Source: an uncultured Bacteroidaceae bacterium (lineage in GTDB: Bacteria > Bacillota > Clostridia > Christensenellales > CAG-917). From it: a stretch of 64,000 bases of DNA. Positions within the stretch are counted from its first letter, which is position 1; each line of letters begins with the position of its first letter. Made by a program: the position numbers and the translations under genes. The stretch is taken from NCBI GenBank assembly GCA_964563025.1, contig CAZLVK010000001.1, forward strand, positions 12,451 to 76,450, read 5' to 3'. Shown one piece after another: positions 11,841 to 64,000 of this stretch. Under the pieces are notes generated by a model. That model was not told the DNA's origin, did not search any database, and saw only the letters and a list, made by a program, of their open reading frames with translations.

Positions 11841-11845
11841 TGATT

Positions 11846-12592
11846 TTACAATTCGTATATTTCGTTGTCGCGGGCAAGGGAAACGTTCGTGCCGTCAATC
11901 AACTCCGCTATTCTGCGTTTGTCGTCCTCGCTCCATTCCGGGTTTTGGTGCACGAGAAGAACCTTCCCGAACCTATCGAGAGGTATATCGCCGAGGAGTT
12001 TTTCGACGGACGTATGTTTGCTACCCTCGCTACTCTTGATTTCCCAACATTCGTGGAGAAGAAGTTTTGCGGGAGTTACGTTTTCCCACGCGGATTTTTC
12101 GATAATCGTATCCGTCGCGTAGACCAAGTCGTCGTCAACGGATATTCTGAAAGACGGTGCGCTGTGCGTTTGCGCCGTCACGCCTATATGAAGGTCGCCT
12201 ATATCGAAATCCTTTCCCGCATAGTCTATGCAACTCACGCTCTTTGAGAACTTGTCGATATCTCTCGAAAAGAACGCCGTCTGCAACAACTCTTTCATAT
12301 ACTCGTGAGTGGTTTTCTCGTATACGGGTTTGCCGGGACCGTAAATGCGCAACTCCTTATCCGCGATATACGGCAACAAATAGATGAGTCCGATAAGGTG
12401 GTCGAGATGATAGTGGGACAAGATTATCGATATTCTATCGTACTTTTTTATGACGTCGAGATATTCGGACATCCTTGCGACTCCCGTGCCCGCATCCAGC
12501 AAAACAAGTTCGCCTTTGCTTTCGAGCATAAAGCAACTCGTGTGGTTTTCTTTCGGTATCCAGCCGCCGCTGCCTAACAGATATAATTTCAT
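11846..12592 (-). CDS. MBL-fold metallo-hydrolase (RNase Z-like)
   Basis: HYHLDHLIG (HxHxDH motif) and an N-terminal LLGSGG. Confidence 0.85.
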   Translation of the reverse strand: MKLYLLGSGGWIPKENHTSCFMLESKGELVLLDAGTGVARMSEYLDVIKKYDRISIILSHYHLDHLIGLIYLLPYIADKELRIYGPGKPVYEKTTHEYMKELLQTAFFSRDIDKFSKSVSCIDYAGKDFDIGDLHIGVTAQTHSAPSFRISVDDDLVYATDTIIEKSAWENVTPAKLLLHECWEIKSSEGSKHTSVEKLLGDIPLDRFGKVLLVHQNPEWSEDDKRRIAELIDGTNVSLARDNEIYEL

Positions 12593-12611
12593 ATTTTCTC
12601 CTCCGAAAAAC

Positions 12612-15193: not shown

Positions 15194-15245
15194 ATATCCT
15201 CACTTTATTCTGCCGTTTTGAGCAGATAAACTATATTTTTCGTCG

Positions 15246-16496
15246 TTATATCTCATCTACGCATACGCCTATTCCGCGCAATACGTCGAAGAAGTTACGA
15301 GGCAAATCGTTCTCGACTATACTCTTCGTAAACGAGAAGAGTGTACGCCCGCCGGTGCTGGTTACGCCGAGGTTCACCTTTGCGTTTTTGGACACGTTCA
15401 CGTTGAACAGCACCCTTTTCACACCGAAGCCGTCGGGCATATCCGTCCGTCCGAGGTTGGACAGAATTATCGTTTGTCGGGACTTCAAAAACAATCGGAT
15501 GAACTTCGCCACCCCCGTCTTGAACCATAGCGGAGTAAGTCTCAGAAGAAGGGTTTTCTCGGCGCGAACGGTTGTCGAAATCATAGCGGACAGCTTCTCT
15601 TTCGTCGCGTTTACGGCAAGTTGTTCCTTTGCGCTTGCGACGAAGTCGTCGAGCGTTTTAAGCGCGCGCGGTCTAAATACGAGTCGCACGAAAGTCACGA
15701 AGTTGCGCACGCTCTCGGACGGAAATACCGAGCGGAGATTGACGGGGACCATCATCACGATGGGGCGTTTGCAGTCGTCGGTTTTTTCTATCGAATAGGC
15801 AAGCACGCCTGCGGTAAAAGCGGTGAACGTCGCACCGTTTTCTTTCGCGATTTTGGACGCGTCCGAATAGTTGCACTCCCCTCTTATCGCCGAATAGCCG
15901 TTTTCGTCGATCGTACCGGTGAGCAAATGAGGTGCGGAGCCCGTCAGACCTTTGACGTCGATACCGCCGAATTTTATCGGAGAATAATGTCTGGCATAAG
16001 CGTCCTCCGACTCACTCTCGGAGGGTGTCGCGTCGAAGTCTATCGCTCCGTCAATGCCCTCGAAGGAACGGCCTTGTGCCTCGCGGTATTTCTGGACGAT
16101 GCCTTTCAAAAAAATCGTTGCACCCGTGCCGTCGCATAGCCCGTGAAAGACTTCGAGGATTATCCGATTATCGCGGTAAGACGTGCGGAAAAGGTAGTCG
16201 TTCGTCTCTACGGGGTTTATGGGGCGCAACAACTTTCCGTCGCTCGGGAAAACCAAAACTTCCTTTTCGTTTTCTTCGAGATAATGCCAGTTGTAGCCTT
16301 TTTTCAAGCGCACTTTGAAGGTCGGGAATCTGTCCATCGCCTCGTTTACGGCGAGGGAAAGCAACTCGCTCGAAACGGTCTCGTCGAGTTCCGCCTCGAT
16401 TCTAAAAATACTTTGCGCCTTTTTCGTCGCCATAATCGGGTAAAAAAGCGACGAATTGTCAAGGGCGTATCTTTTCGGCGTGCGTTTTTTCTCCAT
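15246..16496 (-). CDS. condensation-domain-like acyltransferase (alcohol acetyltransferase family-like)
   Basis: The HGLCDG (HxxxD) catalytic motif and an N-terminus YALDNSSLFYPIM...FRIEAELDETV typical of this family in Clostridia. Confidence 0.65.
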   Translation of the reverse strand: MEKKRTPKRYALDNSSLFYPIMATKKAQSIFRIEAELDETVSSELLSLAVNEAMDRFPTFKVRLKKGYNWHYLEENEKEVLVFPSDGKLLRPINPVETNDYLFRTSYRDNRIILEVFHGLCDGTGATIFLKGIVQKYREAQGRSFEGIDGAIDFDATPSESESEDAYARHYSPIKFGGIDVKGLTGSAPHLLTGTIDENGYSAIRGECNYSDASKIAKENGATFTAFTAGVLAYSIEKTDDCKRPIVMMVPVNLRSVFPSESVRNFVTFVRLVFRPRALKTLDDFVASAKEQLAVNATKEKLSAMISTTVRAEKTLLLRLTPLWFKTGVAKFIRLFLKSRQTIILSNLGRTDMPDGFGVKRVLFNVNVSKNAKVNLGVTSTGGRTLFSFTKSIVENDLPRNFFDVLRGIGVCVDEI

Positions 16497-24883: not shown

Positions 24884-27472
24884 TTAGTTGCCGTGCAACC
24901 TATTTATCGTTTTGTTGTTCAGCGTGTAGGTGCTTTGCGGAGTGATGTCTCCGTAGGTTTGACCGTAACTGAACAGCATTGCGTCGAGTGCGACGGGAAG
25001 GGAGCCCATCACTTCGCTTGCTCTCACCATTTGTATTCTTTCGTCCGCAAGGGTGTATGTGAGTTTAGACTCCTCACCGAGCGCAGAAGAGATAAATCCG
25101 AGGTGGAAATAATCCGTTCTGTTGTAACTCACCGACCAAGTGTCCATGAAGTCCTTATTGGAGAGCAGTCTTTCTCTTACGATGGTGTTGAGCATCGAGA
25201 AGAGGGCATTGTCGTAGTCGCTGAGCAAGTTCAATACGTCGATGGGTTGCCAATTGTATATATCGAGGAAGCCCTCTTGCGTGAGCGTGCTGTTCTTTCC
25301 CTCCGCGATATTTTTCTCTGCCATTTCGGGAGTGCAGTACTCGTTTTCGCTGTTGCTGTAACCGCCGTAATAGATATTCAATCCCGTTCCTACGAGGTTG
25401 GACATAATGCAGTTGCGGAGGGTGAGGTGCGTGTAGCACACGCCGGTTTCGTCCGCGTTGGTGCTTGCGTAAATGCCCGTAGTGATGCAGTTTCTTATCA
25501 CGGAGCCGTTGACGGTGACGTCGGCGTTATCGATGATTATTGCGGTTCCGCAGTTTTCGATGACACAGTACTCAATCGTAATATTTTCGTGGTGGTTGGC
25601 GTTCCCTTTTCCGATTTGATAGATATTGATAGCTCTACCCGTCATACCCTTGGTCTCGTCGGCGGAAGAGATTTCGTCTTGCGCCGAGTTACAACGGACG
25701 GTTAGGTTTGAAATCGTGACGTTGCTCGTCGGGATGAGGATTAGTTCGTCGTTTGCGCCTACTTGTTGGAACTCCGCGGAATACATATATCCGTTGCCGT
25801 AAACGTTCTTGTAAGCGAATATGCCGATGTCGCGCCAGTTGTCGTACGTCCCTTCGGGGTTGTCCATGAACTTAACGTTCGACTCGAAAGAGATGGCGCG
25901 TTGCTCGTTCGACGCTCTTTTGAGGTCCTTCCAAGAATTTGCCGCAACGCCCGATACGACCTTTACGTCAAACGAACAAGTCGTATAATCCGCGATGCTG
26001 TATTTCGGATATTTCGCGCTAACGACGACGGTAAGAGTTTGCTTGGTCTCGTCGGTGATTTTGTCCTTATCGAAGTAGAGGACGTTGCCGACGAAGTACG
26101 CCTTGTCCGACTTTTCGCCGTTTTCGTAGACCTCGAAGTTAAAGGCGGAGTAGAATTCTTCAGCCTCGTCGAGATTTTCGGGCGCGGTGGGACGGAGGAA
26201 GTTTATCGCGAACGAGTTGTTCGTCGTCGTCAAGTCGTTCAAATCCGTAGGATTGACGTATTTTGCGGATGCAAAGACGGTTTCTCTGCCGATACCGACT
26301 TCAAAACTCTGCGTACTTCTATCGATAGCAAGCACCGAAACTTTTTCTTCGACGTGCAACGTTACGGTTGCGACGCCGTCGGAGGAGGTTGCGGTGATTG
26401 TGACGTAGCCCTTGCCCACGGTAGTCACTACCCCGTTTTCGTCGACGGTAGCGACGTTTTCGTCGTCCGACGACCAACTGACTGCGGGTACGCCGTCCGC
26501 GAATACGCTACTGTACTTCGCGGTGAGATAGAGGTTTGCGCCCGTAGTGAGAGTTAGCCCGCTTTCTGCGCCGAAGAGTTTCGCGTGTTCGATTTCAATA
26601 TCGTTATTCGAGCAAGCGTAGACGTTGACTTTTTCGCCGTTCACCTCGAAACTTGCGTTGACGCCGACGGGCAACACAAGTTTGCCGTCTTGTATCGTGC
26701 AATTATCGAGTGCGCTAATATCGCTTTCGTCCACACCCAAGTCGTCGAGGGAGATTTCGTTCGTATGGGAATAGAATTCCTTCCCGAACCTCGTCACGCC
26801 GTCCGAAACGGTGATTTCGACGCTTGCGGACACTTGACCGTCCTCCGTGGTTGCGTAGTGGTGAACGGTGGTCGTACCTGCGCCGACAGCGGTAATAATA
26901 CCGTTCCCGTCGACTCTGACGATATTTTCGTCGTCGGATGACCAAACGACGTTGTCCGCAACGCTTTCGATAGGCGTATAGACTGCCTCAGCATACGTTA
27001 CGTCACCTACGACGAGATTGGTATTCGCCTTTATGGTAATCTTCTTGACCGCTTTATCCACGACGTAGACGAAGCATCTGTCCGAGATACCGTCCGCCGA
27101 AACTTTCACCCAGAAACGACAATAGGTATTGATTCTGATTTTGCCCGCGGACGTATCCGTAACGACCGCCGCCACTTCGCTGACGAAACCGCTCGCGTAG
27201 TTTTCGGAATAATCTTCGTCGAGGCAAACGAGGTCTTCTATTTCCCACTCTATATCGTAGTTCTTCGCCTTTTCCGGGAGAATCGTGACGGTGAGATAGT
27301 CGTTCAAATCGACCTCGTCGGTCGTCAAGCCGATTTCGATAGACTTAGAGGAGAGTGTAACTTCCTCGACGCCTATATATGCGGTCACCGAGATAAAGAC
27401 GGTGACGGCGGCAACGACCGCAACGATTACTATAGGAATGATTATCAATATTCCTACCATTAATTTTTTCAT
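24884..27472 (-). CDS. TM-anchored surface protein, Big_2 repeats plus parallel beta-helix module (paralogue 1, 862 aa)
   Basis: N-terminal anchor MKKLMVGILIIIPIVIV. Two Big_2-like units (VVWSSDDENIVRVDGNGIITAVGAG and VSWSSDDENVATVDENGVVTTVGKG). Beta-helix repeats (NCITTGIYAS, RNCIMSNLVGTGL). Shared motifs GFLDIYNWQ and a C-terminal STYTLNNKTINRLHG. Confidence 0.75.
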   Translation of the reverse strand: MKKLMVGILIIIPIVIVAVVAAVTVFISVTAYIGVEEVTLSSKSIEIGLTTDEVDLNDYLTVTILPEKAKNYDIEWEIEDLVCLDEDYSENYASGFVSEVAAVVTDTSAGKIRINTYCRFWVKVSADGISDRCFVYVVDKAVKKITIKANTNLVVGDVTYAEAVYTPIESVADNVVWSSDDENIVRVDGNGIITAVGAGTTTVHHYATTEDGQVSASVEITVSDGVTRFGKEFYSHTNEISLDDLGVDESDISALDNCTIQDGKLVLPVGVNASFEVNGEKVNVYACSNNDIEIEHAKLFGAESGLTLTTGANLYLTAKYSSVFADGVPAVSWSSDDENVATVDENGVVTTVGKGYVTITATSSDGVATVTLHVEEKVSVLAIDRSTQSFEVGIGRETVFASAKYVNPTDLNDLTTTNNSFAINFLRPTAPENLDEAEEFYSAFNFEVYENGEKSDKAYFVGNVLYFDKDKITDETKQTLTVVVSAKYPKYSIADYTTCSFDVKVVSGVAANSWKDLKRASNEQRAISFESNVKFMDNPEGTYDNWRDIGIFAYKNVYGNGYMYSAEFQQVGANDELILIPTSNVTISNLTVRCNSAQDEISSADETKGMTGRAINIYQIGKGNANHHENITIEYCVIENCGTAIIIDNADVTVNGSVIRNCITTGIYASTNADETGVCYTHLTLRNCIMSNLVGTGLNIYYGGYSNSENEYCTPEMAEKNIAEGKNSTLTQEGFLDIYNWQPIDVLNLLSDYDNALFSMLNTIVRERLLSNKDFMDTWSVSYNRTDYFHLGFISSALGEESKLTYTLADERIQMVRASEVMGSLPVALDAMLFSYGQTYGDITPQSTYTLNNKTINRLHGN

Positions 27473-27567: not shown

Positions 27568-29097
27568 TCAGTTGACTCCGATTCCGTGGAGTCTGTCGAT
27601 GAGTTTATTGTTTATGGTATAAGTCGAGGACGGGATAATGTCTTCGACGGTGTTCTTATAGGTGTAGAGATATACCTCGTTTTGCAAGACGTTTTCAAAT
27701 CCGCTGAGAATATCGCTGGTGACGTAAGTGAGTCTTTCGTCCTCGAACGTCCATTCGAGATAAGTGGGATATTGCACGCCCGAACTCATAAATCCGATGA
27801 GGAAGAATTGCTCGCGGTTATACTCGTAGCGATAGTCCGCAATACTCTTATCGAGGAGTTTGTCGCGGAGAATTGCGTTGATACCTTGCGCAAGAGCCAT
27901 TTCGGTGGAACCCGAACCGAGAACGTCGGCGGGAAGCAAATTCATCGAGTTTATGCTCTGCCAATTGTATATATCGAGGAAACCGAGTTGAGTATAGGTG
28001 GTGTTTCTACCCGTGGCAATGAGTGCATTGCGCTCCTCTTCTCTGTCGTCGCCGGGCAAATAGTCCTTATACTCGAAACTGAGACTCATACCGGTGAGGT
28101 TTGACATAACGCAGTTCTTCGTGGTGAATTTGGAAAATCCTACATCAACCACCCCGTTGCTTTCCCACGTCCTTGTCGGGACGTAGATGCCGACGCCTGC
28201 CGAGTTGCGGAAAATACAACCCTCGACGAAGTTTTCGCAAGTGAATACTTTGTAGAGTGCGTTACCGTTTTCAAAGATACAATATTCCGCTCTCGTATTT
28301 GAGAGATAAGAATAGACGCCGTCCACATAGTCGCCGTGTCCGTGTCCCGTCGTGCCGAACATAATGCAAGAACCTTGGAGTCCTTCGGTATCGTCTGCGG
28401 TGATGATTTCCTTATCCGAGTCGTTAGCGCGGAAAGTGGCATTGGACACGAAAGAGTCGTTTGCGTTGCAAATCATAAGCGCACCGTGTGTGTTGGTCAG
28501 TTGACCGGGGTCTGCCGAGAGCATAAAGCCGTTGCCGTACAAGCCTTTGGAGTTGGTCAAAATGGGATAGTCGGCGCGAATGCTTTCGTCGTATTTCACG
28601 TCGTCTACGAGGCAAACGTTGAGTTTGTCCTCGGTACCCGCTTTCAAAGTCTCGAAGTCGTTCGCTTCGACGCCGTTTACGACCTTTATATCCACGCTCG
28701 CAGAAGAGAGGTCGGGGTTTGCGAACTTCGGATATTTCGCCGTGACTTTCACGGTGAGAGAGGTTTTCTCGCTAATCTTGTCGCCCGCGAAATAAAGACG
28801 ATTGCCGACGAAGTAGCCCTTGTCGCTGATAGAGCCGTTTTCGAGAAGTTCAAACTTGAACGCTTCGTAAAAACCGCCGAGTTCGGTCTCGGGAGGTATG
28901 GGGCGAATTATCGTGACGTCGATATAGTTTGCGACGAGGTCGCGACCGATGGATATGCCGTCGATTTGAGTACGACTAAGCGTAACCTCTTCGACGCCGA
29001 TATGCATATTCGCGGAAACCACGACGGACACGAGGGACACGACGAGCATAATGATAATCGGTATAATGACTAAGATTCCTATCGTAACTTTTTTCAT
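27568..29097 (-). CDS. TM-anchored beta-helix protein (paralogue 2, 509 aa, no Big_2 units)
   Basis: Same N-terminal anchor (MKKVTIGILVIIPIIIM) and the same roughly 470-aa C-terminal module (KYPKF..., GFLDIYNWQ, STYTINNKLIDRLHG). Confidence 0.75.
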   Translation of the reverse strand: MKKVTIGILVIIPIIIMLVVSLVSVVVSANMHIGVEEVTLSRTQIDGISIGRDLVANYIDVTIIRPIPPETELGGFYEAFKFELLENGSISDKGYFVGNRLYFAGDKISEKTSLTVKVTAKYPKFANPDLSSASVDIKVVNGVEANDFETLKAGTEDKLNVCLVDDVKYDESIRADYPILTNSKGLYGNGFMLSADPGQLTNTHGALMICNANDSFVSNATFRANDSDKEIITADDTEGLQGSCIMFGTTGHGHGDYVDGVYSYLSNTRAEYCIFENGNALYKVFTCENFVEGCIFRNSAGVGIYVPTRTWESNGVVDVGFSKFTTKNCVMSNLTGMSLSFEYKDYLPGDDREEERNALIATGRNTTYTQLGFLDIYNWQSINSMNLLPADVLGSGSTEMALAQGINAILRDKLLDKSIADYRYEYNREQFFLIGFMSSGVQYPTYLEWTFEDERLTYVTSDILSGFENVLQNEVYLYTYKNTVEDIIPSSTYTINNKLIDRLHGIGVN

Positions 29098-29157: not shown

Positions 29158-31893
29158 TTAGATGAAGGAGTAAGGTATGCTTTCGTTGTACTCTACACCC
29201 ACACCGTGAAGTCTGTTGATAAGTTTTCTGTTTATCGTATACGTAGACGAGGGAGTTATGTCCTCGGTCTCGTTGTCGTAGACGAAGAAGTAGCAAGTGT
29301 TCTTGACGAGATTTCCTATACCGCTGACCATATCGCTCGTGAAAACGGTGAGACGGGTGTCTTGCATTACGCCCGACAAGCAGGACTTATCGAGCATACC
29401 CGTACTCATAAAGCCGAGGTGGAAATATTCCTCACGGTTATAAGAGTAACGGAAACTGTCGAGGGACTTATCCGTAATCTTTTCACGGAGCAATGCGTTG
29501 ACCATTTGCGCAATCGCGATTTCGGCATCGCTCGTGCCTATTGCGGTATCCGGCAAAAATCTCATCGTGCTGACGCTTTGCCAGTTGTATATATCGAGGA
29601 AGCCGAGTTGATTGAACGTGGTAACTCTGCCCTCTTCAATCATCTGGTCTCTATACTCGTCGCCGAGACTGCTATATTTGTTGAAGTCGAGATTGATGCC
29701 GAGACCGGTGAGGTTTGACATAACGCTGTTCTTTATCGTGAGAGTTGTATACATCACGTTGTTTTCTTTTAGTGTCCAGCAACGAGTGTAAATACCTACA
29801 CCCGAAGAGTTGCGGAAGATACAACCGTCGATATAGCACTCGCACGTGAGCGGTTTATAAAGCACGTCCGCATTCTCGAAAATGCAATATTCGGCTTTGT
29901 TTCCTCTCACGAACGTATCGTTTCCTTTACTGTCGCGGTCACCCGCATACAACGCGCCCGCCATAACACAAACGCCTTTGAGTCCGTCGGTATCTTCGGT
30001 GGATATGACGTCTTTGGTGGTGTTGTTTCCTCTAAACCAGCCGTTGGAAATCGTCACGTCGTCGCCCTTGACGTAGAGAAGCGCACTCATATTGTTGTCG
30101 AGTTGTCCCGGTTCTGCGGAATACATATATCCGTTGCCGTAATAACTCTTATACATATGGAGTTGGCTTGCGGTCTTGCCTTCGTATACGCACTTCGTGG
30201 TGTCGCCGTCGAAAGTTCCGACAGCAACGTCGTATAGCGTGATGCTGTTCACGAGAACGGCATTGTATTGTTTTGCGTCCGCCGTCTTTCTGAGAGCGGA
30301 ATAACTGTCGATTGCAACGCCGTCTACAACTTTGATTTCAACTGAGTCCGTGGTGAGCAGACTGTCTTTGAATTTCGGATACTTGGCGGTCACTTTCACG
30401 GTGAGAGTGGTCTTTTCGGTCACTTTTTCGTGGTCGAAGTAAAGACGATTGCCGACGAAGTAGCCCTTGTCGCTGGCTTCACCGTTTTCGAGAAGTTCAA
30501 ACGTGAACGCCTCGTAGAACGCTTGCTTGTCTGCGGTCGGTTCGGGGAACACGATTTCAACGTCGATATAGTTTGCCTCGACGTCCGTGTTCACGGATAT
30601 ATCCTTATAACGCAAAGTCGGAATGACGTATTCGAGTGCAAGTCCCGCGTCCGAATATTCGGTCTTGGTCCTGTCGATGATTACGCTGACCACCTTGCTT
30701 CTGACCATCACTTCGATTTCGTCACTGTATTCGCCCGCCGTCACGGTTACGGTAACTATACCGTCCGCTTTGCCGACGAGTACGCCGTTTCCGTCTATCG
30801 TTGCCACCCTCTCGTCGCCGACCGTCCAAGTTGCCGAAATTTCGTCCGTCTTGAACGCGCTCTTCCAGCCGACTTCGAAGTTGAGTGCGTCTCCTACCGC
30901 AAGGATATAATCCTCGTTCTCGTTGTAGGCGAAGATACTCTTGTTCTTGATTTCGATGCCGTCCGAGACGAAGAGTGTGCAAACGCCGTTTACGGTCTCG
31001 AAATTCGCCTCTTCTTTGTCGTCGGCAATTACGAGTTTTTCTCCGTCAACGGTGCAGTTGACCGTGTTTATAATATCCGTCGCCTCGACTCCGAGTGCAG
31101 AGAGGGATATTCTTCTCGTATGAGTGACCACGTCCGCGCCGAGGAGAGTAACGTTTTTCTCGACGGTGAAGTCAAAGTCCGCACTGTCGATATATTCCGC
31201 GTCCGAAACGTACACTCTTGCTTTGACCACCGCATTTCCCGCTTTCACGCCGTGCGCTACGCCGTTCGAGTCGACGGTGAGAACGCTTTCGTCGGAAGAC
31301 AGCCATTCGACTTTCGTCGTGGTAGCGTTGACGGGAGTGAGATATACGTCGAGCAAAGTGCTTTCGCTCTCGAGGAGTCTGTTCTCCCCTACCACTTCTA
31401 CCGATTTCAGTTCGTCGTCCGCGACCTGCACGGTGCAACTTGCCTGGACGGTCTCCGCCGATCCCTTTATCACGAACGTGCAACTCGTATTGACTTTGAA
31501 ACGTCCGCTCGTGTTTTCATCCACGGCGTTGCCGTAAGAGTCCACGAGGGTGACGGGAGGGAGCACCTCTTTGACGTTTTGGTCTTCGTCTTTGTTGTTG
31601 ATATAGTATTCGTACTCTTCCTGATAGGCGGTGTCGAAACAGCGAATACTGTTTTCGTCAATAGTCCAAGTACAAGTCTTGTCCGACGCCTTTTCGGGAA
31701 GAATGGTGACTTTCACGTAATCGTTTACGTCGTAAATTTCTCCGGTGAATGCGATTGCGACTTTGTTCTTGTCGAACGAAATCTCCTCTACGCCTATGTG
31801 CGCCCTCGTGGAAACCACTACGGACACTGCGGAGACGACGGCAAGGATAATCACGGGAATTATCACCAATATGCCGATCATTATTTTTTTCAT
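29158..31893 (-). CDS. TM-anchored surface protein, Big_2 repeats plus beta-helix module (paralogue 3, 911 aa)
   Basis: Anchor MKKIMIGILVIIPVIIL. Big_2-like units (VEWLSSDESVLTVDSNGVAHGVKAG and ATWTVGDERVATIDGNGVLVGKADG). Shared C-terminal module ending STYTINRKLINRLHG. Confidence 0.75.
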   Translation of the reverse strand: MKKIMIGILVIIPVIILAVVSAVSVVVSTRAHIGVEEISFDKNKVAIAFTGEIYDVNDYVKVTILPEKASDKTCTWTIDENSIRCFDTAYQEEYEYYINNKDEDQNVKEVLPPVTLVDSYGNAVDENTSGRFKVNTSCTFVIKGSAETVQASCTVQVADDELKSVEVVGENRLLESESTLLDVYLTPVNATTTKVEWLSSDESVLTVDSNGVAHGVKAGNAVVKARVYVSDAEYIDSADFDFTVEKNVTLLGADVVTHTRRISLSALGVEATDIINTVNCTVDGEKLVIADDKEEANFETVNGVCTLFVSDGIEIKNKSIFAYNENEDYILAVGDALNFEVGWKSAFKTDEISATWTVGDERVATIDGNGVLVGKADGIVTVTVTAGEYSDEIEVMVRSKVVSVIIDRTKTEYSDAGLALEYVIPTLRYKDISVNTDVEANYIDVEIVFPEPTADKQAFYEAFTFELLENGEASDKGYFVGNRLYFDHEKVTEKTTLTVKVTAKYPKFKDSLLTTDSVEIKVVDGVAIDSYSALRKTADAKQYNAVLVNSITLYDVAVGTFDGDTTKCVYEGKTASQLHMYKSYYGNGYMYSAEPGQLDNNMSALLYVKGDDVTISNGWFRGNNTTKDVISTEDTDGLKGVCVMAGALYAGDRDSKGNDTFVRGNKAEYCIFENADVLYKPLTCECYIDGCIFRNSSGVGIYTRCWTLKENNVMYTTLTIKNSVMSNLTGLGINLDFNKYSSLGDEYRDQMIEEGRVTTFNQLGFLDIYNWQSVSTMRFLPDTAIGTSDAEIAIAQMVNALLREKITDKSLDSFRYSYNREEYFHLGFMSTGMLDKSCLSGVMQDTRLTVFTSDMVSGIGNLVKNTCYFFVYDNETEDITPSSTYTINRKLINRLHGVGVEYNESIPYSFI

Positions 31894-54495: not shown

Positions 54496-55035
54496 CTAAA
54501 CGTTCTTTCCCGCCTCGTAGGCTTCTTTCATTGCGGGAGAGGAAAGGATTTCACCTTTCTCATAGGCACCCGTGCCGTAAATCAAGCCTTTTTCGACTGC
54601 GCCCTCTACGCAATCCGCATAACCTCTGAAACAAGCGAACGTCGTTTCGACGGACGCTTTTTCTTCGTCCGCGCAGGTAGCGATATAGTAGAACTCTTTG
54701 TCGTGAACTTCGAGCCATCTTGCGACCGTCCTGTCGATGAGGGCTTTGAGTTGCGCATCTATGGAATAGAAATAAACGGGACTTGCAAGGACTATCACAT
54801 CTGCGTCTATCATCTTTTGCAAGACCTCCGCCATGTCGTCCTTTATTGCGCATTCGCCCGCATGGTCGGAGCAATAATAGCACCCTTTGCAATAGCCGAT
54901 TTTCTTCTCGGCAACTCTTATCTTTTCGACGGCGTTACCCGCCTCTACCGCACCCCTTGCGAACTCGTCGCAAAGGGTATCCGAATTACCGCCTTTTCTG
55001 GGGCTTCCCGACAAAATCAATACTTTTTTGTTCAT
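54496..55035 (-). CDS. flavodoxin-like FMN reductase / iron-sulfur flavoprotein family
   Basis: MNKKVLILSGSPRKGGNS and CKGCYYC. Start at ATG 55035. Confidence 0.8.
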   Translation of the reverse strand: MNKKVLILSGSPRKGGNSDTLCDEFARGAVEAGNAVEKIRVAEKKIGYCKGCYYCSDHAGECAIKDDMAEVLQKMIDADVIVLASPVYFYSIDAQLKALIDRTVARWLEVHDKEFYYIATCADEEKASVETTFACFRGYADCVEGAVEKGLIYGTGAYEKGEILSSPAMKEAYEAGKNV

Positions 55036-55099
55036 ATTTATACCTCTAAACCTTAAATTCGTGCATTTTTCAATATTCGTCACTGCCGACGCCCTACGC

Positions 55100-55483
55100 T
55101 TATAACGCGACGTGCGCAAGCATAATCACGCCTTGAACAAAATATCCGAAAAAGTGTCTCATTGCGCCGTCGCTTTCGCATCTGACGTCCGCAAAAATCG
55201 CACCACGCCCTTCTTCGCTGTGGTCTATATCGAGCCCGAACAAGTCGCATAGCCTATCGATTTCGGCTTTATATTCCTCTTCTTCTATGCCAAGATATTC
55301 CCAATAGTCGGACACACAATGGCAATCGGTGAATCGGAAACCGCCGTCGATTTTTTCAATCCTTATTGCCAGACTTTCGTTGTATGAGCGGAAGAAAATC
55401 GGCGGTGCCACTATCGCAAAATCACCAAAATCGCGCACCGTTACTTCATCGAAGTATTCTTTCACCAATTGTTCGTAATTCAT
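55100..55483 (-). CDS. DUF1828-like protein (127 aa)
   Basis: The pattern ...FAIVAPPIFFRSYNESLAIRIEKIDGGFRFTDCHCV...EIDRLCDLFGLDID... matches my memory of DUF1828. It lies 2 nt downstream of the 459-aa gene. Confidence 0.5.
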   Translation of the reverse strand: MNYEQLVKEYFDEVTVRDFGDFAIVAPPIFFRSYNESLAIRIEKIDGGFRFTDCHCVSDYWEYLGIEEEEYKAEIDRLCDLFGLDIDHSEEGRGAIFADVRCESDGAMRHFFGYFVQGVIMLAHVAL

Positions 55484-55485
55484 AA

Positions 55486-56865
55486 TTACACCTCACTCAC
55501 AAACGCCATATGTAGAACGGCGAAGTTCTTGTCGGCAAGATAGTCTATTTCTTCGTCCGTAAGTTGTTTGCGTATCGAAACGTTCGGATCGATTTTCTTG
55601 ACCTCACCGCATACCTCTACGTATGCGTCGCGTACCATACGTGCGGGATCGAACGTTCTTCTGTCGATAGATTTTACCCCGAAAAAGCGTTTTACGTCGT
55701 CGTCTTTGTTTCTCATCGAGCATAGATACGCGATGATTTTCGCCGGACCGGTCAAACAGCACGACGAGCCGAGTTTCATACCGTCCGCGTTTATAATTTC
55801 GCACGGGAATGTTTTGTGGCATTTGAGTTCTCTGCGATACGTTTCGATATTGAACTCGACTTCAAAGGTTATTTCCTCTTCTCTTTTCAGCATATCGTAG
55901 AGTATTTTCGGTGCGAACTCAATAAACTCGGCATATCCGTCAATCTCCAACCTTTCGTTCTCTCCCGTCACGAGATAAAACGTCGCAATATCTTCGGGAG
56001 AGTGGTCCTCGATTTCAAAGAAATCGACGGCAAGGATATCCATATCGAATCCCAAGAACTCCCATACGTCCTTGTTCGAGTTGTTTTTAAGGCACGTTCT
56101 CAGCGCCATCGCCGGCGAAAAGAACTTGAACGGAACGTAGAAAGACAGTTTTTTCTTCCCGTGTATCACCGTCACGTCGACGTCGTCGCCTTGATGTTCG
56201 CACAAGTTGAAACCGACTTGGTCGGGAGAAACCATCTCCGAGGGCTCGAACTCATCGTCATAGTCGTTTTCGTCGTATTCATCATCGCAGTCAAGTCCTT
56301 TCCACTTGTAATCGGAAAATTTTTCGATTCTATCCACGAGCGGGTTTTCGGGAGAAACACTGCGCGTCACAAAGCGCGAGATTCGTTTCGCTTCGTCTTC
56401 GGAAATTGCGCTATAATACTTGCCGTCCTCGCAAACGACGATTTCCAACTCAACCAACAAAGTAAGCAAATCGTACGGACAGACCTCGACAACGGCGTCG
56501 CGCACGTAGCCGTAGGTGACGTTTTTGCCGTTCAATACCTTGCTCAAAACCGCAAAAATTTCCATCGGAAGAAGTCTTCCGAGTTCTTTCATTTCTTCTT
56601 CGGAGAACTTCGAGCATTGCGTTTCTTCTCCGATTTCTTTAAGTTTTTCGGGGCTTGCAATCACTTTGAAAACTCCGTCGCCCTCGTCCGAAACGATGCC
56701 GTTTTTCAAAAAATACTTAATATAATTGAACGCATCCGTCGCATTAAGGCACACTGTCAACACCAAATCGTCAAAGGTGAAAGTATCTCTATCCGATAAA
56801 AAATGCAGGACTTTGCTCGGCACTTGTACGGCGCAGTTCGTCATGTCCGAATTCTCTTTTCCCAT
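55486..56865 (-). CDS. hypothetical protein with two wHTH-like segments and an acidic linker (459 aa)
   Basis: The N-terminal segments VLHFLSDRDTFTFDDLV...YIKYFLKNGIVSDEGDGVFKV and IFAVLSKVLNGKNVTYGYV...LVELEIVVCEDGKYYSA look like winged-helix domains. An acidic tract CDDEYDENDYDDEFEPSE follows. The roughly 230-aa C-terminal region is unknown. Confidence 0.6.
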   Translation of the reverse strand: MGKENSDMTNCAVQVPSKVLHFLSDRDTFTFDDLVLTVCLNATDAFNYIKYFLKNGIVSDEGDGVFKVIASPEKLKEIGEETQCSKFSEEEMKELGRLLPMEIFAVLSKVLNGKNVTYGYVRDAVVEVCPYDLLTLLVELEIVVCEDGKYYSAISEDEAKRISRFVTRSVSPENPLVDRIEKFSDYKWKGLDCDDEYDENDYDDEFEPSEMVSPDQVGFNLCEHQGDDVDVTVIHGKKKLSFYVPFKFFSPAMALRTCLKNNSNKDVWEFLGFDMDILAVDFFEIEDHSPEDIATFYLVTGENERLEIDGYAEFIEFAPKILYDMLKREEEITFEVEFNIETYRRELKCHKTFPCEIINADGMKLGSSCCLTGPAKIIAYLCSMRNKDDDVKRFFGVKSIDRRTFDPARMVRDAYVEVCGEVKKIDPNVSIRKQLTDEEIDYLADKNFAVLHMAFVSEV

Positions 56866-57045
56866 AATCCTAAATACCGCCGAATTTTTTAGGACGACAA
56901 GTCCCGTACGGCGTTATCTCCTAAAAAAAAAGGATACCACACGCGCGCGATATAGTCAATATTACTCTCCGAATTCTATTGACATTGCGTCTCAAAAAAG
57001 TTATCCTAAAAACGAAGATTGCAAGAATCACAGGAGAGGAAGAAA

Positions 57046-57948
57046 GTGAATTTATTTTTCAAACACTACGATACTTTTTACAACATGGTGTTGTCCACGA
57101 CGATAATGTCCAACGCCATATGTCCCGCATATCTCGAAGACTCGAAGCGTATAATCGACTTCATCGGCAAAGCCTACCGTCTTGACGATAAGTTCATAAA
57201 GAGCGCAAGCGATTTCATACTCGGCGACCTCACTTCTCTCGGGCTCACCACCGACCAACTTGCCGTCTACGGAGACAGACAATACGGGGACGAATACTCC
57301 GACCTCGACGTCCTTTTCGACATAAAAGGGGACGTGCTGAACAAACTCCAATATATGGCGAGTACCGCAGAGGGCGCAGTCAATTCTGGCTGGTTCGATT
57401 TTTCTCACTATAAGACTTATCAAGCGGACGTGCGTTTTGCAAAAATCAATACCGCGGGAGCATCCGGGGATGTCATATGCACCCGTCAAATCGGTATTCT
57501 ACGCATTCTCGGCATAGGCTGTCCCGTCAATATTCACGAGGGCATCGTGAGGCTTTATCAGTGCGTATGCTGGGGAGATATTCCCGCAACGTACTATCTT
57601 GCCTACGCCTACTCTCTTCTCGGCGACGAGAAAAACTCCAAACTGTTCTACGAGATAGCAGAACTTTTCGACACCTATCTGAAAGCGGGCTACACCGTAC
57701 TTCCCGCCGAGGCGAACGCGCGTTACTCCGAGCGTGCGCGTCTCAATTACGTATACATTTCGTCCATAAAGCAAGACGTGGTATTTGCCTACAAACGCTA
57801 CAAAATCGACTTCTCTTTCGTCGAAGCGATAACTTCTCCGGGACTCGAATATTCGGAGATTATGTACCACATAAACAACTACGGGCAGTACGGCTGGAAG
57901 GAAATCACAAATTCCTCCGCAAAACCCGTAGCGCAAGTAGGATTTTAA
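57046..57948 (+). CDS. Sel1-like repeat protein
   Basis: GASGDVICTRQIGILRILGIGCPVNIHEGIVRLYQCVCWGDIPATYYLAYAY resembles Sel1/SLR repeats. GTG 57046 sits behind AGGAGAGGA. TTG 57019 is an alternative start. Confidence 0.55.
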   Translation: MNLFFKHYDTFYNMVLSTTIMSNAICPAYLEDSKRIIDFIGKAYRLDDKFIKSASDFILGDLTSLGLTTDQLAVYGDRQYGDEYSDLDVLFDIKGDVLNKLQYMASTAEGAVNSGWFDFSHYKTYQADVRFAKINTAGASGDVICTRQIGILRILGIGCPVNIHEGIVRLYQCVCWGDIPATYYLAYAYSLLGDEKNSKLFYEIAELFDTYLKAGYTVLPAEANARYSERARLNYVYISSIKQDVVFAYKRYKIDFSFVEAITSPGLEYSEIMYHINNYGQYGWKEITNSSAKPVAQVGF

Positions 57949-57960
57949 GGAGGAATAACC

Positions 57961-59781
57961 ATGGAAAGAATTTCTTCCGCCGATAAAATTCGCGAAAAAC
58001 ACATAGCGGACTTCCTTGAAGATTCGAGACTTATAAATTACACCGACCTCACCGAAAAGGACGGGCTTGTCACCGTTCTCTATAAGGACCTCCCACACAC
58101 CGAAATCGACGGTTATCCTATTGCCAGCGACTACGTGAGCGAGGACGGCAAAATCTATTCGATGAACGACGTCGCGGACCTATCCCCCGAAGAGCGAGCG
58201 AAGTGCGAACTTCGTTACTACTATCTCCCCTACACCCACGAACTTTGCGTCGGCACTACGGGAAGCGGTAAAACCACCGGTTGCATAGAACCTCAACTGA
58301 GAGCGATTTCCTCCCAAAAGAATAAGCCGAACCTCTTCCTTACGGACCCCAAAGGCGAACTCTTCGACAGAAACGCGAAACACCTACGCGACCAAGGCTA
58401 CGACGTTTTCGTAGTCAACTTCAAAAACTTAACTCGTTCTGACCAATGGAACCCTCTCCTCGAACTGTACGACACGAAAATGAAGTTGAAATCCGTCGGC
58501 AAAGGCGTAATAATGCGCACGGGAAAGGTCAAGAGAAATCTCTCGCTTTACGGCAACCCTTCCGAATTTTCAAAGGACGGCTATATCGAATACGACGGGA
58601 AGGCGTTCCCGAACGGCGAAATTTACGAAGAATACCTATCTTTCGAGCGCGACTATATCGAAGCGACGGTCTCCGACCTCGTCAATCAAATGGCTTGCAC
58701 GATGATAATTCCCAAAAGCAAGCACGACATAACCTGGGAAATGGGCGCACAGGAACTTCTGAAAGGGCTCATTCATTGCATGCTCCACGATGCGTATTAC
58801 CACCCCGAAACCATCACTCGCGACAGAATGAATTACGCGACTTTGCAACAATACTATCTCGCGCTGAAAAATCCCATACTTGCGGATGAAACCAAACTCA
58901 ACCGTCACCCCTTGTTGAAAGACAAACCGACGATGTACGTCGCACTTATGTCTACCGCGCTGAATAACGCACCCGGCACTATGCGTAGTTATTGCGGTGT
59001 TTTCGACACTTGCATGAAAGATTGGTTCAAAGGACACATCTTCGCACTCACGTCCCACAATACGGTTTTCCTCGACAACAGCGAGAAAAAACCGTTTGCG
59101 ATTTTCCTCATCACGCGCGATTACGAAAAGAGCGACTTCCAAGTGGCGGGACTTTTTGTAGACTGGGTTTACCGTCAGATGCTTGAACGCGCCGAAAACA
59201 AAAAGTCCACTCGCGCGCTACATTTCCTCCTTGACGAATTCGGCAATATTCCCGAAATCAAAGACCTTGAAAACAAAATCGCGACTTCGAGGTCCCGCAA
59301 CATATGGTTTCACCTCGTTGTGCAATCCTACAAGCAAATCGACGCCGTATACGGTGACGTCCGCGCGATAGTCATCCGCGACAACTGCAACTCGCAAATC
59401 TTCCTCGGCTCTCAGAACAGACCGACGAAAGAGATTTTCTCGGCAGAATGCGGAAAGCACTCCGTCCTGACGCTTGAATCCAAACTCAATCCGAGCGTCA
59501 ACTCGCTTGCCGAAATACCTCTCGTGCCCGTCAGCAAATTGGACCTCATCAAGCCCGGCGAAATCTTCATAAAACGCATATATATGCCCGTCGTAACTGC
59601 GCAATATATCCGAAGTTACGTATGTGCCGAGCAAGGCTCTTATAAGGATTTCGGACACGGACTGGCAAAGTGCACGCCGATTTCGGTACAATCCTTCAAT
59701 TCGGATAAATATCTATTCAAGGGATTCGACAAGTTCATCGACTTATCGTATTTCAACGGTAACAACGATTTCGATTTCTAA
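57961..59781 (+). CDS. VirD4/TraG/TraD-family (type IV coupling protein-like) ATPase with no evident N-terminal TM anchor
   Basis: Walker A CVGTTGSGKTTG, then LFLTDPKGELF, DQWNPL, Walker B-type HFLLDEFGNIPEI, and SRSRNIWFHLVVQSYKQIDAVYG. The first roughly 100 residues are hydrophilic. Confidence 0.8.
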   Translation: MERISSADKIREKHIADFLEDSRLINYTDLTEKDGLVTVLYKDLPHTEIDGYPIASDYVSEDGKIYSMNDVADLSPEERAKCELRYYYLPYTHELCVGTTGSGKTTGCIEPQLRAISSQKNKPNLFLTDPKGELFDRNAKHLRDQGYDVFVVNFKNLTRSDQWNPLLELYDTKMKLKSVGKGVIMRTGKVKRNLSLYGNPSEFSKDGYIEYDGKAFPNGEIYEEYLSFERDYIEATVSDLVNQMACTMIIPKSKHDITWEMGAQELLKGLIHCMLHDAYYHPETITRDRMNYATLQQYYLALKNPILADETKLNRHPLLKDKPTMYVALMSTALNNAPGTMRSYCGVFDTCMKDWFKGHIFALTSHNTVFLDNSEKKPFAIFLITRDYEKSDFQVAGLFVDWVYRQMLERAENKKSTRALHFLLDEFGNIPEIKDLENKIATSRSRNIWFHLVVQSYKQIDAVYGDVRAIVIRDNCNSQIFLGSQNRPTKEIFSAECGKHSVLTLESKLNPSVNSLAEIPLVPVSKLDLIKPGEIFIKRIYMPVVTAQYIRSYVCAEQGSYKDFGHGLAKCTPISVQSFNSDKYLFKGFDKFIDLSYFNGNNDFDF

Positions 59782-59794
59782 CGAACGCTACAAA

Positions 59795-59830
59795 AACACG
59801 CCGAGACCATCGGCGTGTTTTTATTTTTCG
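59795..59830. terminator. bidirectional terminator
   Basis: AAAAACACGCCGA-gaccat-CGGCGTGTTTTTATTTTT. Confidence 0.85.
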
Positions 59831-61922: not shown

Positions 61923-62240
61923 ATGAAAGAAATAAATTGCAAAACCTCGAACTGTGAACACAACGTAAAATGCAAATGCCTTGCGGGTATCATCGCCGTC
62001 GGAGAAAACGGCAAATGCCTTAGTCGCATAAAACGCGACGGCGGTGCGCTTGCGCAATCCTTTGCGGACGTAGAAGCGGGAGAAGAGTTTTTCGGCGAAA
62101 ACGCCGAAAGTATGGTTCAATGTTCCGCGTCCTGCGCATTCAATTCGGGCGGTATCTGCTCGTGCGACAAGATAACTGTCGACGACGCGGTTTTCGGCAC
62201 GAAATGCAAATCGAGAGTGTCACCGAAAGGGAACGGCTAA
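61923..62240 (+). CDS. DUF1540 domain protein (two Cys-rich repeats)
   Basis: CKTSNCEHNVKCKCLAGIIAV and CSASCAFNSGGICSCDKITV match the DUF1540 pattern. Confidence 0.7.
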   Translation: MKEINCKTSNCEHNVKCKCLAGIIAVGENGKCLSRIKRDGGALAQSFADVEAGEEFFGENAESMVQCSASCAFNSGGICSCDKITVDDAVFGTKCKSRVSPKGNG

Positions 62241-62329: not shown

Positions 62330-64000
62330 TCATTTCTTAATTTTTATCACCTTGCAACCTCTCTTTTTGAGGAGCCATTTTACGTCGTCGAGGATTTGAT
62401 AGTCGTACTTGATGACGTCGCACTTTTCGGGTTTCTTCCCGACCACTTTGCCCTTGAACTCTCTAAAGTCGATAAGCCCCTCGTAAGTGGTAAGATTGCC
62501 ATGCTTTCTGAAACTCTTCTCGAAGTCGTCCTTGTTGCCTTTCAAGAGATAGGACTCGATTTCCGCTTTCGAGGCGGGGACGAATCCGCAACAAATCATA
62601 TAGGCGTTCCAACGCTCGTGTTCCTGAACGGCGAAGTTGTTTCTTATAGTATTACTCTTGAAGTGGCAATCGCCGTAGTCGACCTGTTCTTTATCCTGCA
62701 ATGTTTTGACGTTGCCTTTCTCGTCGAGTTGATATACGATTTCGTCGTCCTTTTGATACGCCTTGAAGAACTCCTCGGTAGCGTCCTCTTCTTTCGAGTT
62801 TATATCCGCACAGTCGTAGCCGAGAAGGTTGAGTTTCAAGCGTATGGACATACACGCGTACACGTTGCTTTCCCTCTTGTACTGAGCGTACTCGCCGTAC
62901 CAAGTATTCATAGCGTTTTTCTCGATAGTTTCCGCGGACGCGCCGGCTTCGGCGTATTCCGTTTCGTAGCAAACGTGACGACGACGAGCAAGCAAGTCTA
63001 TCTCGTGATTGACGATTTTATCCACGTTATAAACCGTTCTTCTCTCACCGCCGAAAACGATGAACTCTCCGTTTTTCTCGTAATCGTCATGAAGCACGCT
63101 GTTGTACAAATCGTCGTTGCGGATTTTGACGAAGACTTTGGTGCTCTCGTCAAATCCCCACTCTCTGAGTTTGACTGCGACTTTTTCCGCAAGGTCGAGG
63201 TTGTCGAGGTCGGAGCCGAAAGCGATGATGACGTTATTGACCGCGATATGCCCCGCCTCTGCCGTGAGGTTTTCTTTTATCTTTCCGTAGAAACTCGTAT
63301 CGTTAATATCGATTTTTTCAAAACTGACGTTTGCGGGGTTGTCGGGAAGGGGCAAATAATTGCTCTCGTCAAAGTCTTTGTCCTCTCTGAATTCTTTCGT
63401 ATAGCGGTAATAGTTATGGTTGAGGTCTTTATCGTTGTCGGATTCCTCTTTGTCGTAGATGAAGTAATCCACTTTTTTATGCACGAGTTTCTCGCCTTCT
63501 ATCGTCAAAAATTGGTTGTTCTCGACAGATGTCAAAAACAGTTGTTGACCGGTCTTTCCGAAACCTATCATAACGACGTTGACGTCCACTTCGGGACGAA
63601 CGGTAGCCGTCGAATAGTCAATGTGTTTCTCACTCATAAACTCCGTCAAAGGATAGCGGTCGAGGAAATCCATAGCCACCAATTTATACTTGTTGACGTA
63701 TCGCACCGAGCCTTTCGTTTTCTCGACAAGGCGGGTGAAAGCGTACTCGTTTTGCTCGTCGCCAAACACGTACGCGACGATACCTTTGGGGTTGTCGATA
63801 GACCAGCCGTTGAAGCCGGTGCGTTCTACGATTTTGCTGAGTTCTTCGCAATACACGAGGTTTAATGCGTCGTTTTCGGCATTTAAAATCACGTTTACGA
63901 CTTTATTATCAAATCTACCGCACAGTTTTTCGAGTTTGGTTTCAAGCCCGCTTTCATTGAAGCGCACGACAGCCACTCCCGACGCAAACAACTCGTCCAT
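62330..64000 (-). CDS. large hypothetical protein with a Rossmann-like GxGxxG segment and a RyR-like C-terminal domain (at least 556 aa)
   Basis: VVMIGFGKTGQQLF is a dinucleotide-binding-type loop. The C-terminus FAVQEHERWNAYMICCGFVP...HGNLTTYEGL resembles bacterial RyR domains. The ORF reaches the window edge, where an ATG occupies 64000-63998. The true start may lie beyond the window. Confidence 0.6.
   Translation of the reverse strand: MDELFASGVAVVRFNESGLETKLEKLCGRFDNKVVNVILNAENDALNLVYCEELSKIVERTGFNGWSIDNPKGIVAYVFGDEQNEYAFTRLVEKTKGSVRYVNKYKLVAMDFLDRYPLTEFMSEKHIDYSTATVRPEVDVNVVMIGFGKTGQQLFLTSVENNQFLTIEGEKLVHKKVDYFIYDKEESDNDKDLNHNYYRYTKEFREDKDFDESNYLPLPDNPANVSFEKIDINDTSFYGKIKENLTAEAGHIAVNNVIIAFGSDLDNLDLAEKVAVKLREWGFDESTKVFVKIRNDDLYNSVLHDDYEKNGEFIVFGGERRTVYNVDKIVNHEIDLLARRRHVCYETEYAEAGASAETIEKNAMNTWYGEYAQYKRESNVYACMSIRLKLNLLGYDCADINSKEEDATEEFFKAYQKDDEIVYQLDEKGNVKTLQDKEQVDYGDCHFKSNTIRNNFAVQEHERWNAYMICCGFVPASKAEIESYLLKGNKDDFEKSFRKHGNLTTYEGLIDFREFKGKVVGKKPEKCDVIKYDYQILDDVKWLLKKRGCKVIKIKK

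Follow-up and report, generated by a model that had tools for sequence, protein, structure and literature searches.

Type IV coupling proteins (T4CPs) count as the membrane-bound gatekeepers of type IV secretion, and in known systems such as that of DotL the coupling protein is served by adaptors. ATPases of the FtsK/HerA superfamily, to which the T4CPs belong, have also been co-opted in defence systems. Coupling proteins that lack a transmembrane domain nevertheless form a recognised class; one of them, TraJ of pIP501, works with the membrane protein TraI (PMC7431656), and the class corresponds to class iii of Llosa and Alkorta as cited in that paper. The present analysis deals with a gene pair found in a 64,000-nt stretch of DNA from an uncultured bacterium that GTDB places in the Christensenellales (contig CAZLVK010000001.1 of assembly GCA_964563025.1, positions 12,451 to 76,450); this whole stretch is referred to as the window. 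One gene of the pair, gene B, codes for a 606-aa ATPase with the motifs of a coupling protein, while gene A, which lies directly upstream, codes for a Sel1-like protein of about 300 aa. A divergent pair, formed by a 459-aa open reading frame (ORF; gene C) and a gene for a 127-aa protein, adjoins them. Gene B is a member of the T4CP superfamily by both sequence and fold that has neither a membrane anchor nor a linked type IV secretion system (T4SS) or relaxase, and A and B together are the invariant two-gene core of a chromosomal, non-conjugative module present in Christensenellales-like gut Clostridia.

Three Pfam families matched gene B above their gathering scores, namely T4SS-DNA_transf (PF02534; E = 1.5e-31, 110 bits versus a cut-off of 20.1), TraG-D_C (PF12696; E = 1.9e-23, 83 bits) and TrwB_AAD_bind (PF10412; E = 4.6e-20, 72 bits). 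All the ATPase motifs listed in an earlier reading of the window, made from its sequence alone (the original prediction), were found in the 606-aa translation (GTTGSGKT, TDPKGEL, WNPL, LLDEFGNIP, RSRNIW and VVQSYKQ), with Walker A at residues 98–105 and Walker B at residues 423–427. Each of these motifs is invariant or nearly so across the family of B homologues described below, and there is no variation in Walker A, Walker B, RSRN or QSYxQ. This conservation indicates that gene B codes for an active enzyme and is no relic. The protein consists of a soluble N-terminal segment of ~90 aa followed by a nucleotide-binding domain (NBD) and an all-alpha domain (AAD), and it has a family-specific β-hairpin insert at about residues 180–216. 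Its C-terminal tail is disordered and acidic and ends in DFDF; a tail that is both acidic and aromatic (DFDF, FDW or similar) was present in 71 of 117 family members. An AlphaFold2 (AF2) model of the protein (pLDDT 90.7) gave Cag-beta as the best Foldseek match (E = 7e-17, TM score 0.58–0.65), with TrwB next. Over the matches to these two proteins the E-values ranged from 7e-17 to 1e-12 and the TM scores from 0.58 to 0.69, at a sequence identity of just 12–14%. HerA, VirB4, DndH and TdpA appeared as more distant fold matches.

No transmembrane helix could be recognised in gene B, the maximum Kyte-Doolittle mean over 19 residues being 1.04 for the whole protein. The N-termini of its homologues agreed with this: among the 120 that were listed, the first 150 residues reached at most 0.79 on the same scale, and none had an N-terminal transmembrane helix. 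The possibility that a corrected start might reveal an anchor had been raised as a way to overturn the prediction. No start codon, however, lies between the ATG of gene B and the stop ahead of it, and an upstream extension or an anchor gained in this way is thus impossible. The proposal of an orphan, soluble coupling-protein homologue with intact catalytic motifs is borne out.

Among curated families the nearest to gene B was NCBIfam CD1115 (NF045973; 225 bits, E = 1.6e-66), although the score fell below the cut-off of 250. The CD1115-family T4CPs of Firmicute conjugative plasmids and integrative and conjugative elements, exemplified by those of B. thuringiensis pBMB64 and C. difficile pCd5_2, have the NBD, the AAD and the motifs in common with B, at 25–30% identity over residues 93–592 only. 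The plasmid proteins are 648–729 aa long, carry two N-terminal transmembrane helices and have as their neighbours genes for a MobP3 relaxase, for TrbL and PrgI, and one that is VirB4-like. In contrast, the members of the B family have no transmembrane helix, a different N-terminal domain, an obligate Sel1-like partner and no conjugation genes nearby. The B clade looks like a CD1115-like coupling protein in which the transmembrane domain has been swapped for a soluble domain of ~90 residues. A search of viral contigs detected no member of the B family, and the closest protein was a 722-aa T4CP with transmembrane helices in locus L018 (loci are designated here by L numbers), a locus whose ORFs suggest a conjugative element. 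This protein shares with the B family the form of the β-hairpin insert (‘...Y.F DG.A(F/Y)...’).

The comparison with other described systems gave a similar mixture of likeness and difference. TrwB (R388) and Cag-beta (H. pylori) have the same NBD and AAD architecture as B but, unlike B, are membrane-anchored components of T4SSs. Cag-beta is under the control of a small helical protein, CagZ (PDB 8dol, entry title), which provides a precedent for a helical partner of a T4CP; the product of gene A, a Sel1-like protein of 300 aa, can be likened to CagZ as a helical partner only, no resemblance between the two having been seen, nor a test aimed at it made. TraJ of pIP501 is, like B, an ATPase without a transmembrane domain, and a membrane protein (the product of gene D, see below) is encoded near B in some lineages. 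TraJ and TraI, however, sit in a complete conjugation operon, whereas B has no linked T4SS or relaxase and its invariant partner A is soluble. Finally, HerA-DUF4297, HerA-Sir2, DndH, TdpAB and mad8 belong to the same P-loop superfamily as B, HerA, DndH and TdpA being secondary fold matches of B, and the island-like neighbourhoods are another point of likeness. Nonetheless, B is of the VirD4 type and not of the HerA clade, and the A-B pair lacks the cognate nuclease or Sir2 effector of the HerA-type defence systems.

Homologues of gene B were found by the hundred in metagenome-assembled genomes of Christensenellales and Clostridia that derive from gut metagenomes. They are ~600 aa long and show 51–96% identity to the query; clustering gave at least 120 clusters at 90% identity and about 26 at 50% identity, with constant lengths. 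In a search of 1.8 billion representatives, the ~26 clusters of the latter kind aligned from about residue 5 at 36–56% identity, and none had a transmembrane helix. Below the boundary of the clade the scores were 240 bits or less and the identities 28–35%, the matches being a mix of coupling proteins with two transmembrane helices and VirD4-like proteins with none. A hidden Markov model (HMM) of the family separated the two groups sharply: members scored 885–1067 bits, while all other T4CP-like ORFs, in more than 50 fetched loci, scored 302 bits or less. Searching genome contigs with the single B protein yielded nine loci. A profile search of metagenome contigs with the B family alignment picked up generic T4CP motifs and returned only distant, transmembrane-bearing T4CPs, which were used as negative controls. 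No close relatives of B were present in plasmids, phages or IMG/VR.

About one third of the distant VirD4-like representatives (P0253–P0376, 28–35% identity) also lacked an N-terminal transmembrane helix. These proteins were either 550–600 or 750–900 aa long, with Walker A at about residues 70–90. Soluble VirD4-like proteins thus seem to be far commoner in metagenomes than the literature class of T4CPs without a transmembrane domain implies.

Gene A codes for an all-helical protein (AF2 model, pLDDT 93) with central Sel1-like repeats, at about residues 124–193 according to the profile match and over a longer stretch of ~120–180 residues according to the fold match, and with a basic C-terminal tail that ends in VGF. 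A C-terminus of the form [LIVFM]GF was found in 101 of 103 A homologues. The description of this protein as Sel1-like had been made from its sequence alone, and it held at the level of the family rather than of the single protein. No Pfam domain was detected in 104 A homologues of ~300 aa, and the single gene A sequence gave no match to Pfam Sel1 even at E ≤ 10. However, a profile of the A family built from 58 sequences matched Sel1-repeat proteins of the PDB (6ork, 1.3e-8; 8sxq, 3.6e-7; SEL1L, 2.8e-5), with about two repeats covered. Nearly all the top fold matches of the gene A model in the PDB and BFVD were likewise Sel1-repeat proteins, these matches being weak and local (E ~0.02–0.03, TMq ~0.3; 120 residues at TMt 0.62). 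One A homologue, P0175, carries the name ‘cell division protein SepF’, which appears spurious: the Pfam SepF match is below threshold (16.7 bits versus a cut-off of 27) and covers 29 residues. No A homologue was found in 72,556 plasmids.

Inspection of the homologous loci showed gene A directly upstream of gene B, on the same strand, in 19 of the 19 loci with upstream sequence. The gap between the two genes was 9–27 nt in the 11 loci with called genes. Neither in the window nor in any of these 19 loci does the pair sit in a conjugative element, and in the 11 with called genes no relaxase, VirB4, TrbL/VirB6, pilin or integrase domain was present within ±8–10 kb. Apart from A and B no gene was universally conserved, the neighbours differing in almost every lineage, and the genomic position of the pair also shifts in nearly every lineage. 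It had been suggested that the four adjoining genes of the window form a repurposed DNA-sensing or translocating module with DNA-binding and scaffold partners. The soluble ATPase with its Sel1-like partner agrees with that view, and a winged helix-turn-helix (wHTH) protein accompanies them in several lineages, but what is conserved is a core of two genes, to which variable accessories are added. In the window and in loci L073 and L068 the pair lies beside rsmI. When the window was compared with L068, genes A, B and D showed 70–75% identity (72–75% for the pair) and gene C 29%, while rsmI, a methyltransferase gene, the L9 gene and a gene for a 105-aa protein showed 85–90%.

The pair often has neighbours of the defence or accessory type. 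A complete AbiEi/AbiEii pair (E = 3e-58 and 5e-99) adjoins A-B in L070; near A-B there are also WYL and TIR-like genes in L016, a TIR_2-LRR gene in L069 and a TIR_2-STAND-TPR gene in L071, and kinase, VWA and TerD genes were found near it in L017, L001 and L003. Other contexts are purely housekeeping, such as a ribosomal-protein operon in L012 and DnaG, sigma factor and gyrase genes in L070. The association with defence genes is suggestive only, since no formal background model stands behind it. A comparison with PADLOC-DB v2.0.0 matched no known defence system: A, C, the 127-aa protein and D had no match, and B matched only mad8, at 34.6 bits, with no other mad gene present. The MADS preprint offered no details on how mad8 folds, and the match was treated as generic P-loop similarity. 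The literature on orphan or soluble VirD4 proteins and on VirD4-like defence proteins yielded no description of the A-B module. PADLOC v2, PHROGs, NCBIfam and the searchable literature likewise yielded none of the B clade, of the Sel1-like protein that partners B, or of their link with wHTH, RyR-like or ClpP-like proteins.

The features of the locus are collected in Table 1. The original description of the locus was right on the four ORFs, on the short gap between A and B, on the divergent pair of promoters and the bidirectional terminator, and on the housekeeping genes at either side. The GTG start is favoured for gene A; it is preceded by GGAGAGGAAG, which may act as its ribosome binding site (RBS), and it agrees with the N-terminus of the family. 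The 300 aa read from it are the length of an identical NCBI protein, P0121. Genes A and B are separated by 12 nt, and AGGAGG, a strong RBS, lies 7 nt ahead of the gene B ATG. Both predicted promoters fall inside the spacer of 150–200 bp between genes A and C, and the terminator lies between B and rsmI.

Table 1. Coordinates of the features of the A-B locus in the window and of the ClpP-like gene pairs that adjoin A-B in other loci
Feature	Position	Strand	Basis or remarks
127-aa ORF	55100-55483	-	ORF listing
Gene C, 459-aa ORF	55486-56865	-	ORF listing
Sigma-70-like promoter of gene C and the 127-aa gene	56931-56959	-	TTGACT-17-TATCCT with TG; consensus match only
Sigma-70-like promoter of the A-B operon	56979-57007	+	TTGACA-17-TATCCT; consensus scan, 10/12 matches; consensus match only
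Gene A, longest ORF, 309 aa	57019-57948	+	TTG start at 57019
Gene A, favoured reading, 300 aa	57046-57948	+	GTG start at 57046; family alignment and RBS GGAGAGGAAG
Gene B, 606-aa ATPase	57961-59781	+	ORF listing
Bidirectional intrinsic terminator	59792-59822	.	13-bp stem, 6 GC pairs; A-run before, T-run after
Gene D, cut by the window end	62330-64000	-	Family homologues; no Pfam match
ClpP-like pair, locus L071	12028-13107
ClpP-like pair, locus L016	9825-10905
ClpP-like pair, locus L072	5815-6889

On one side the locus is flanked by a DnaB_2 gene, an IstB/DnaA-like (DnaI-like) gene and an FMN_red flavodoxin gene, and on the other by rsmI (TP_methylase and RsmI_C), all according to Pfam. The Pfam scan covered 30 ORFs, among them most of the largest in the 64 kb, and only chromosomal or housekeeping families were represented among them (e.g. 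AlaRS, PolA, MazG, Dus and L9); the absence of relaxase, VirB4, pilin and integrase genes from the window, asserted beforehand, was confirmed for these 30 ORFs. No tRNA genes were found in the window, and Rfam gave no match between positions 54400 and 64000. The flavodoxin-like ORF (54496-55119, minus strand) has in its longest form a TTG start, and this form shares 20 nt with the end of the 127-aa gene. Its Pfam match begins at residue 31–32, just behind an internal Met (MNKKVLILSG). Translation thus probably starts further downstream, in which case there is no overlap. A 105-aa Cys-rich protein (61923-62240, plus strand) is encoded between gene D and the L9 gene; its orthologue in L068, which is 89.5% identical, is listed with a faint DUF1540 match. 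Elsewhere in the window, upstream of an ABC-transporter pair, two large proteins with Big_2 (bacterial Ig-like) domains (24884-27472 and 29158-31893, both on the minus strand) have between them a 509-aa ORF without a Pfam match (27568-29097, minus strand); this is probably a surface-protein cluster unrelated to A-B.

Gene C, divergently transcribed from A-B, codes for a protein with an N-terminal tandem wHTH-like domain (about residues 15–190), followed by an acidic linker and, at the C-terminus, by a domain specific to the lineage. The protein had no match in Pfam, NCBIfam, PADLOC or PHROGs, and only three full-length homologues, all in the nearest relatives, were detectable among 5.8 billion proteins. 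The N-terminal domain of ~165 aa, by contrast, recurs in seven loci from five lineages (the window, L073 with two copies, L068, L002, L015, L071 and L016). These were recovered in a controlled iterative HMM search of 5,525 ORFs from 73 sources, with E-values at first detection from 6e-16 to 2e-4; the domain occurred only in loci that bear the A-B pair and gave no match in more than 50 unrelated control loci. As to the two wHTH-like segments predicted in the 459-aa protein, the family alignment shows two repeated helix-helix-helix-wing units. Pfam did not recognise them and, although the best PDB profile matches were all wHTH proteins (STN1, 0.033; MotA; ScpB), their E-values were weak. The member in L071 matched SMC_ScpB at 0.0057. 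The C-terminal halves differ among the proteins with this domain, that of the 459-aa version occurring in two lineages only. Gene C is a fast-evolving accessory partner of the pair. A 204-aa neighbour of the pair in L012 was compared with the wHTH family, with no clear result either way.

The 127-aa gene is coupled to gene C by a gap of 2 nt, and homologues of it were found only in the lineage of the window and in L073 (46% identity). It is a lineage-specific gene and no general member of the module. Its assignment to DUF1828 could not be upheld: Pfam gave no match at E ≤ 10, and the NCBIfam matches were at chance level. BLAST and HMM comparisons also revealed no similarity to a family of YbjN-like proteins of 158–162 aa that recurs in L071, L001, L002, L003 and L017.

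Recurrent partners of the pair were also found outside the coordinates of the four genes. The window holds only part of gene D. Full-length members of its family have 723–753 aa, with two to three N-terminal transmembrane helices, a Rossmann-type region (GxGxxG) and a C-terminal RyR-like motif (EHERWN). In L071 gene D directly follows B on the same strand, and in L015 it is adjacent and divergent, in an operon with a gene for a wHTH-domain protein. It lies 2.5 kb from the pair in the window and in L068, whose copy is 70% identical. Its recurrence beside A-B in other lineages makes D a candidate for the membrane partner missing from the soluble B. A distant paralogue of D in L071 matched Pfam RyR at 7e-5, below the gathering score. 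In L002 the D gene (5502-7727, minus strand) is split into three ORFs and is apparently a pseudogene, while the adjoining A-B pair is intact; the related loci L001, L003 and L017 carry neither D nor the wHTH gene. This indicates that the D and wHTH accessory genes are dispensable for the maintenance of A-B.

Two ClpP-like genes lie directly beside A-B in three lineages (L016, L071 and L072). One copy of each pair lacks the catalytic Ser and His, while the other has an intact Ser-His-Asp triad, and in both the ~25 residues at the N-terminus of canonical ClpP are missing. The proteins resemble bona fide ClpP models, with scores below the cut-offs, and the arrangement resembles, by analogy, that of ClpP/ClpR hetero-complexes. 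The fullest arrangement, a tightly packed operon, is that of L071, where A, B and D are followed by the ClpR-like and ClpP-like genes, the RyR paralogue, the wHTH gene, the YbjN-like gene and a gene for a Sel1 protein, the TIR_2-STAND-TPR gene lying ahead of them.

An IMG/VR contig that may not be viral contains a further arrangement (L039, positions 9052-16055). A 544-aa CD1115-like ATPase without transmembrane helices, whose Walker A is apparently degenerate (SSGMKKS), is encoded there ahead of an intact ClpP-like gene and of genes for a membrane protein that bears an HExxH motif and for a TIR-like and LRR-like protein, the TIR assignment having been made by reading the sequence. This looks like a second, distant association of a soluble T4CP with ClpP. 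The protein encoded upstream of this ATPase was tested for likeness to A, with a negative result.

The explanation that we favour, tentatively and at a little less than an even chance, is that A-B is the adaptor-motor core of a non-conjugative conflict system (anti-phage, anti-plasmid or anti-conjugation) and does not serve the export of DNA. B would form a hexameric ring like that of TrwB and would spend ATP on engaging or translocating a polymer, be it DNA or a protein that is unfolded or bound to DNA. A would serve B as an adaptor or regulator, in the way that CagZ serves Cag-beta or the adaptors serve DotL. The wHTH protein could supply recognition of nucleic acid or of a target, and the RyR-like membrane protein and the ClpP-like protease could be the anchor or the effector where they are present. 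A conflict role is considered the most likely because the turnover of partners is rapid, the partners evolve fast and the contexts are island-like. Several observations nevertheless weigh against it. The invariant pair includes no nuclease or other classical effector, and the functions of its components are predicted ones; against the known defence families the two gave nothing but the weak, generic match of B to mad8. The physical interaction of A with B is suggested by gene order only. The count of defence neighbours was drawn from about 12 contexts, again with no formal background model, and the search covered neighbourhoods only, so that a T4SS might be encoded elsewhere in these genomes. 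Further, A-B is widely and stably present, with synteny kept in the window, L073 and L068, which would fit a housekeeping function equally well. Such a function, that of a vertically inherited, lineage-specific motor, is an unlikely but still substantial alternative. By analogy with SftA of Bacillus, a soluble FtsK-like translocase, B might move DNA in chromosome segregation or septum clearance, or else handle proteins as an ATPase, with the Sel1-like protein as a localisation adaptor. The constant length and invariant catalytic motifs, the purely housekeeping nature of several contexts and the lack of an effector domain in A-B would all agree with this. However, the pair evolves about twice as fast as the adjacent housekeeping genes (the identities between the window and L068 given above), it changes position in nearly every lineage, its flanks are often of the accessory or defence type, and its recurrent partners are modular, fast-evolving or decaying; the ‘SepF’ annotation rests on the sub-threshold match already mentioned.

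The ClpP-like neighbours raise another explanation, which we regard as improbable: that the B ring is the unfoldase or translocase of a ClpR/ClpP-like peptidase, and so part of a new ATP-dependent protease, with A docking through its [LIV]GF tail. ClpX and ClpC carry ClpP-docking loops of the form IGF, VGF or LGF, and the C-termini of nearly all A homologues have a comparable ending. The dead and intact ClpP-like subunits beside the pair in three lineages, and the soluble ATPase beside an intact ClpP-like gene in L039, point in the same direction. Most loci, including the window, have no ClpP-like gene within 8–10 kb, however, and the resemblance of the motifs extends over only three residues. 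To our knowledge, no member of the FtsK/HerA superfamily feeds a ClpP chamber. That A-B is an orphan coupling protein acting in trans for a T4SS and relaxase encoded elsewhere, in the manner of the TraJ protein described above, with D as the membrane partner, is quite improbable. A recognised class of coupling proteins without a transmembrane domain (PMC7431656) and the membrane protein D, which is encoded close to or next to A-B in four to five lineages, would speak for it. Yet the 11 loci with called genes are free of relaxase, VirB4, VirB6/TrbL and integrase genes over the interval surveyed, the B clade is set sharply apart from the element-borne T4CPs by its HMM scores, A is absent from the 72,556 plasmids, and many of the lineages in which A-B is kept have no D or only a decayed copy. 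The original prediction had offered either the last surviving genes of a decayed integrative and conjugative element (ICE) or a four-gene system, and a remnant of this kind, or a fixed system of exactly these genes, now seems very improbable. It is true that the nearest relatives of B are element-borne T4CPs of the CD1115 type, and that housekeeping genes enclose the four closely spaced genes, with a terminator at the end. The decayed element was rejected because the B family comprises at least 120 clusters at 90% identity, in which the length is constant and the motifs do not vary, because the conserved partner was not detected on plasmids, and because there is no ICE debris nearby. The four-gene system did not survive the test of co-variation, in which only A and B proved universal: the 127-aa gene and the C-terminal half of the 459-aa protein are each confined to two lineages, and most loci carry neither.

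A more speculative proposal, which we consider rather unlikely, takes the operon of L071 as the fullest form of a domesticated coupling-protein motor. The Sel1-like and wHTH partners might allow a hexamer of B to recognise foreign proteins or DNA-protein complexes. The hexamer would then either feed these into a ClpR/ClpP-like chamber or trigger a membrane RyR-like effector. If true, a VirD4-type ring of the FtsK/HerA superfamily would for the first time be the basis of an ATP-dependent protease or an immune effector. In an alternative form of the proposal, the module could be a counter-measure, encoded on the chromosome, that takes advantage of the substrate specificity of the conjugation machinery.

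Whichever function applies, the context of the ~600 proteins annotated as ‘type IV secretory system conjugative DNA transfer family protein’ can be corrected, since these are not markers of conjugative elements. If the pair serves defence or opposes conjugation, it would represent a new class of motor in bacterial immunity, in gut Clostridia that are abundant in humans and poorly studied; if it drives a ClpP-like protease, it would represent a new kind of ATP-dependent protease. A large, strongly conserved clade with neither an anchor nor a secretion system would show that the motor of a coupling protein can be re-used outside conjugation.

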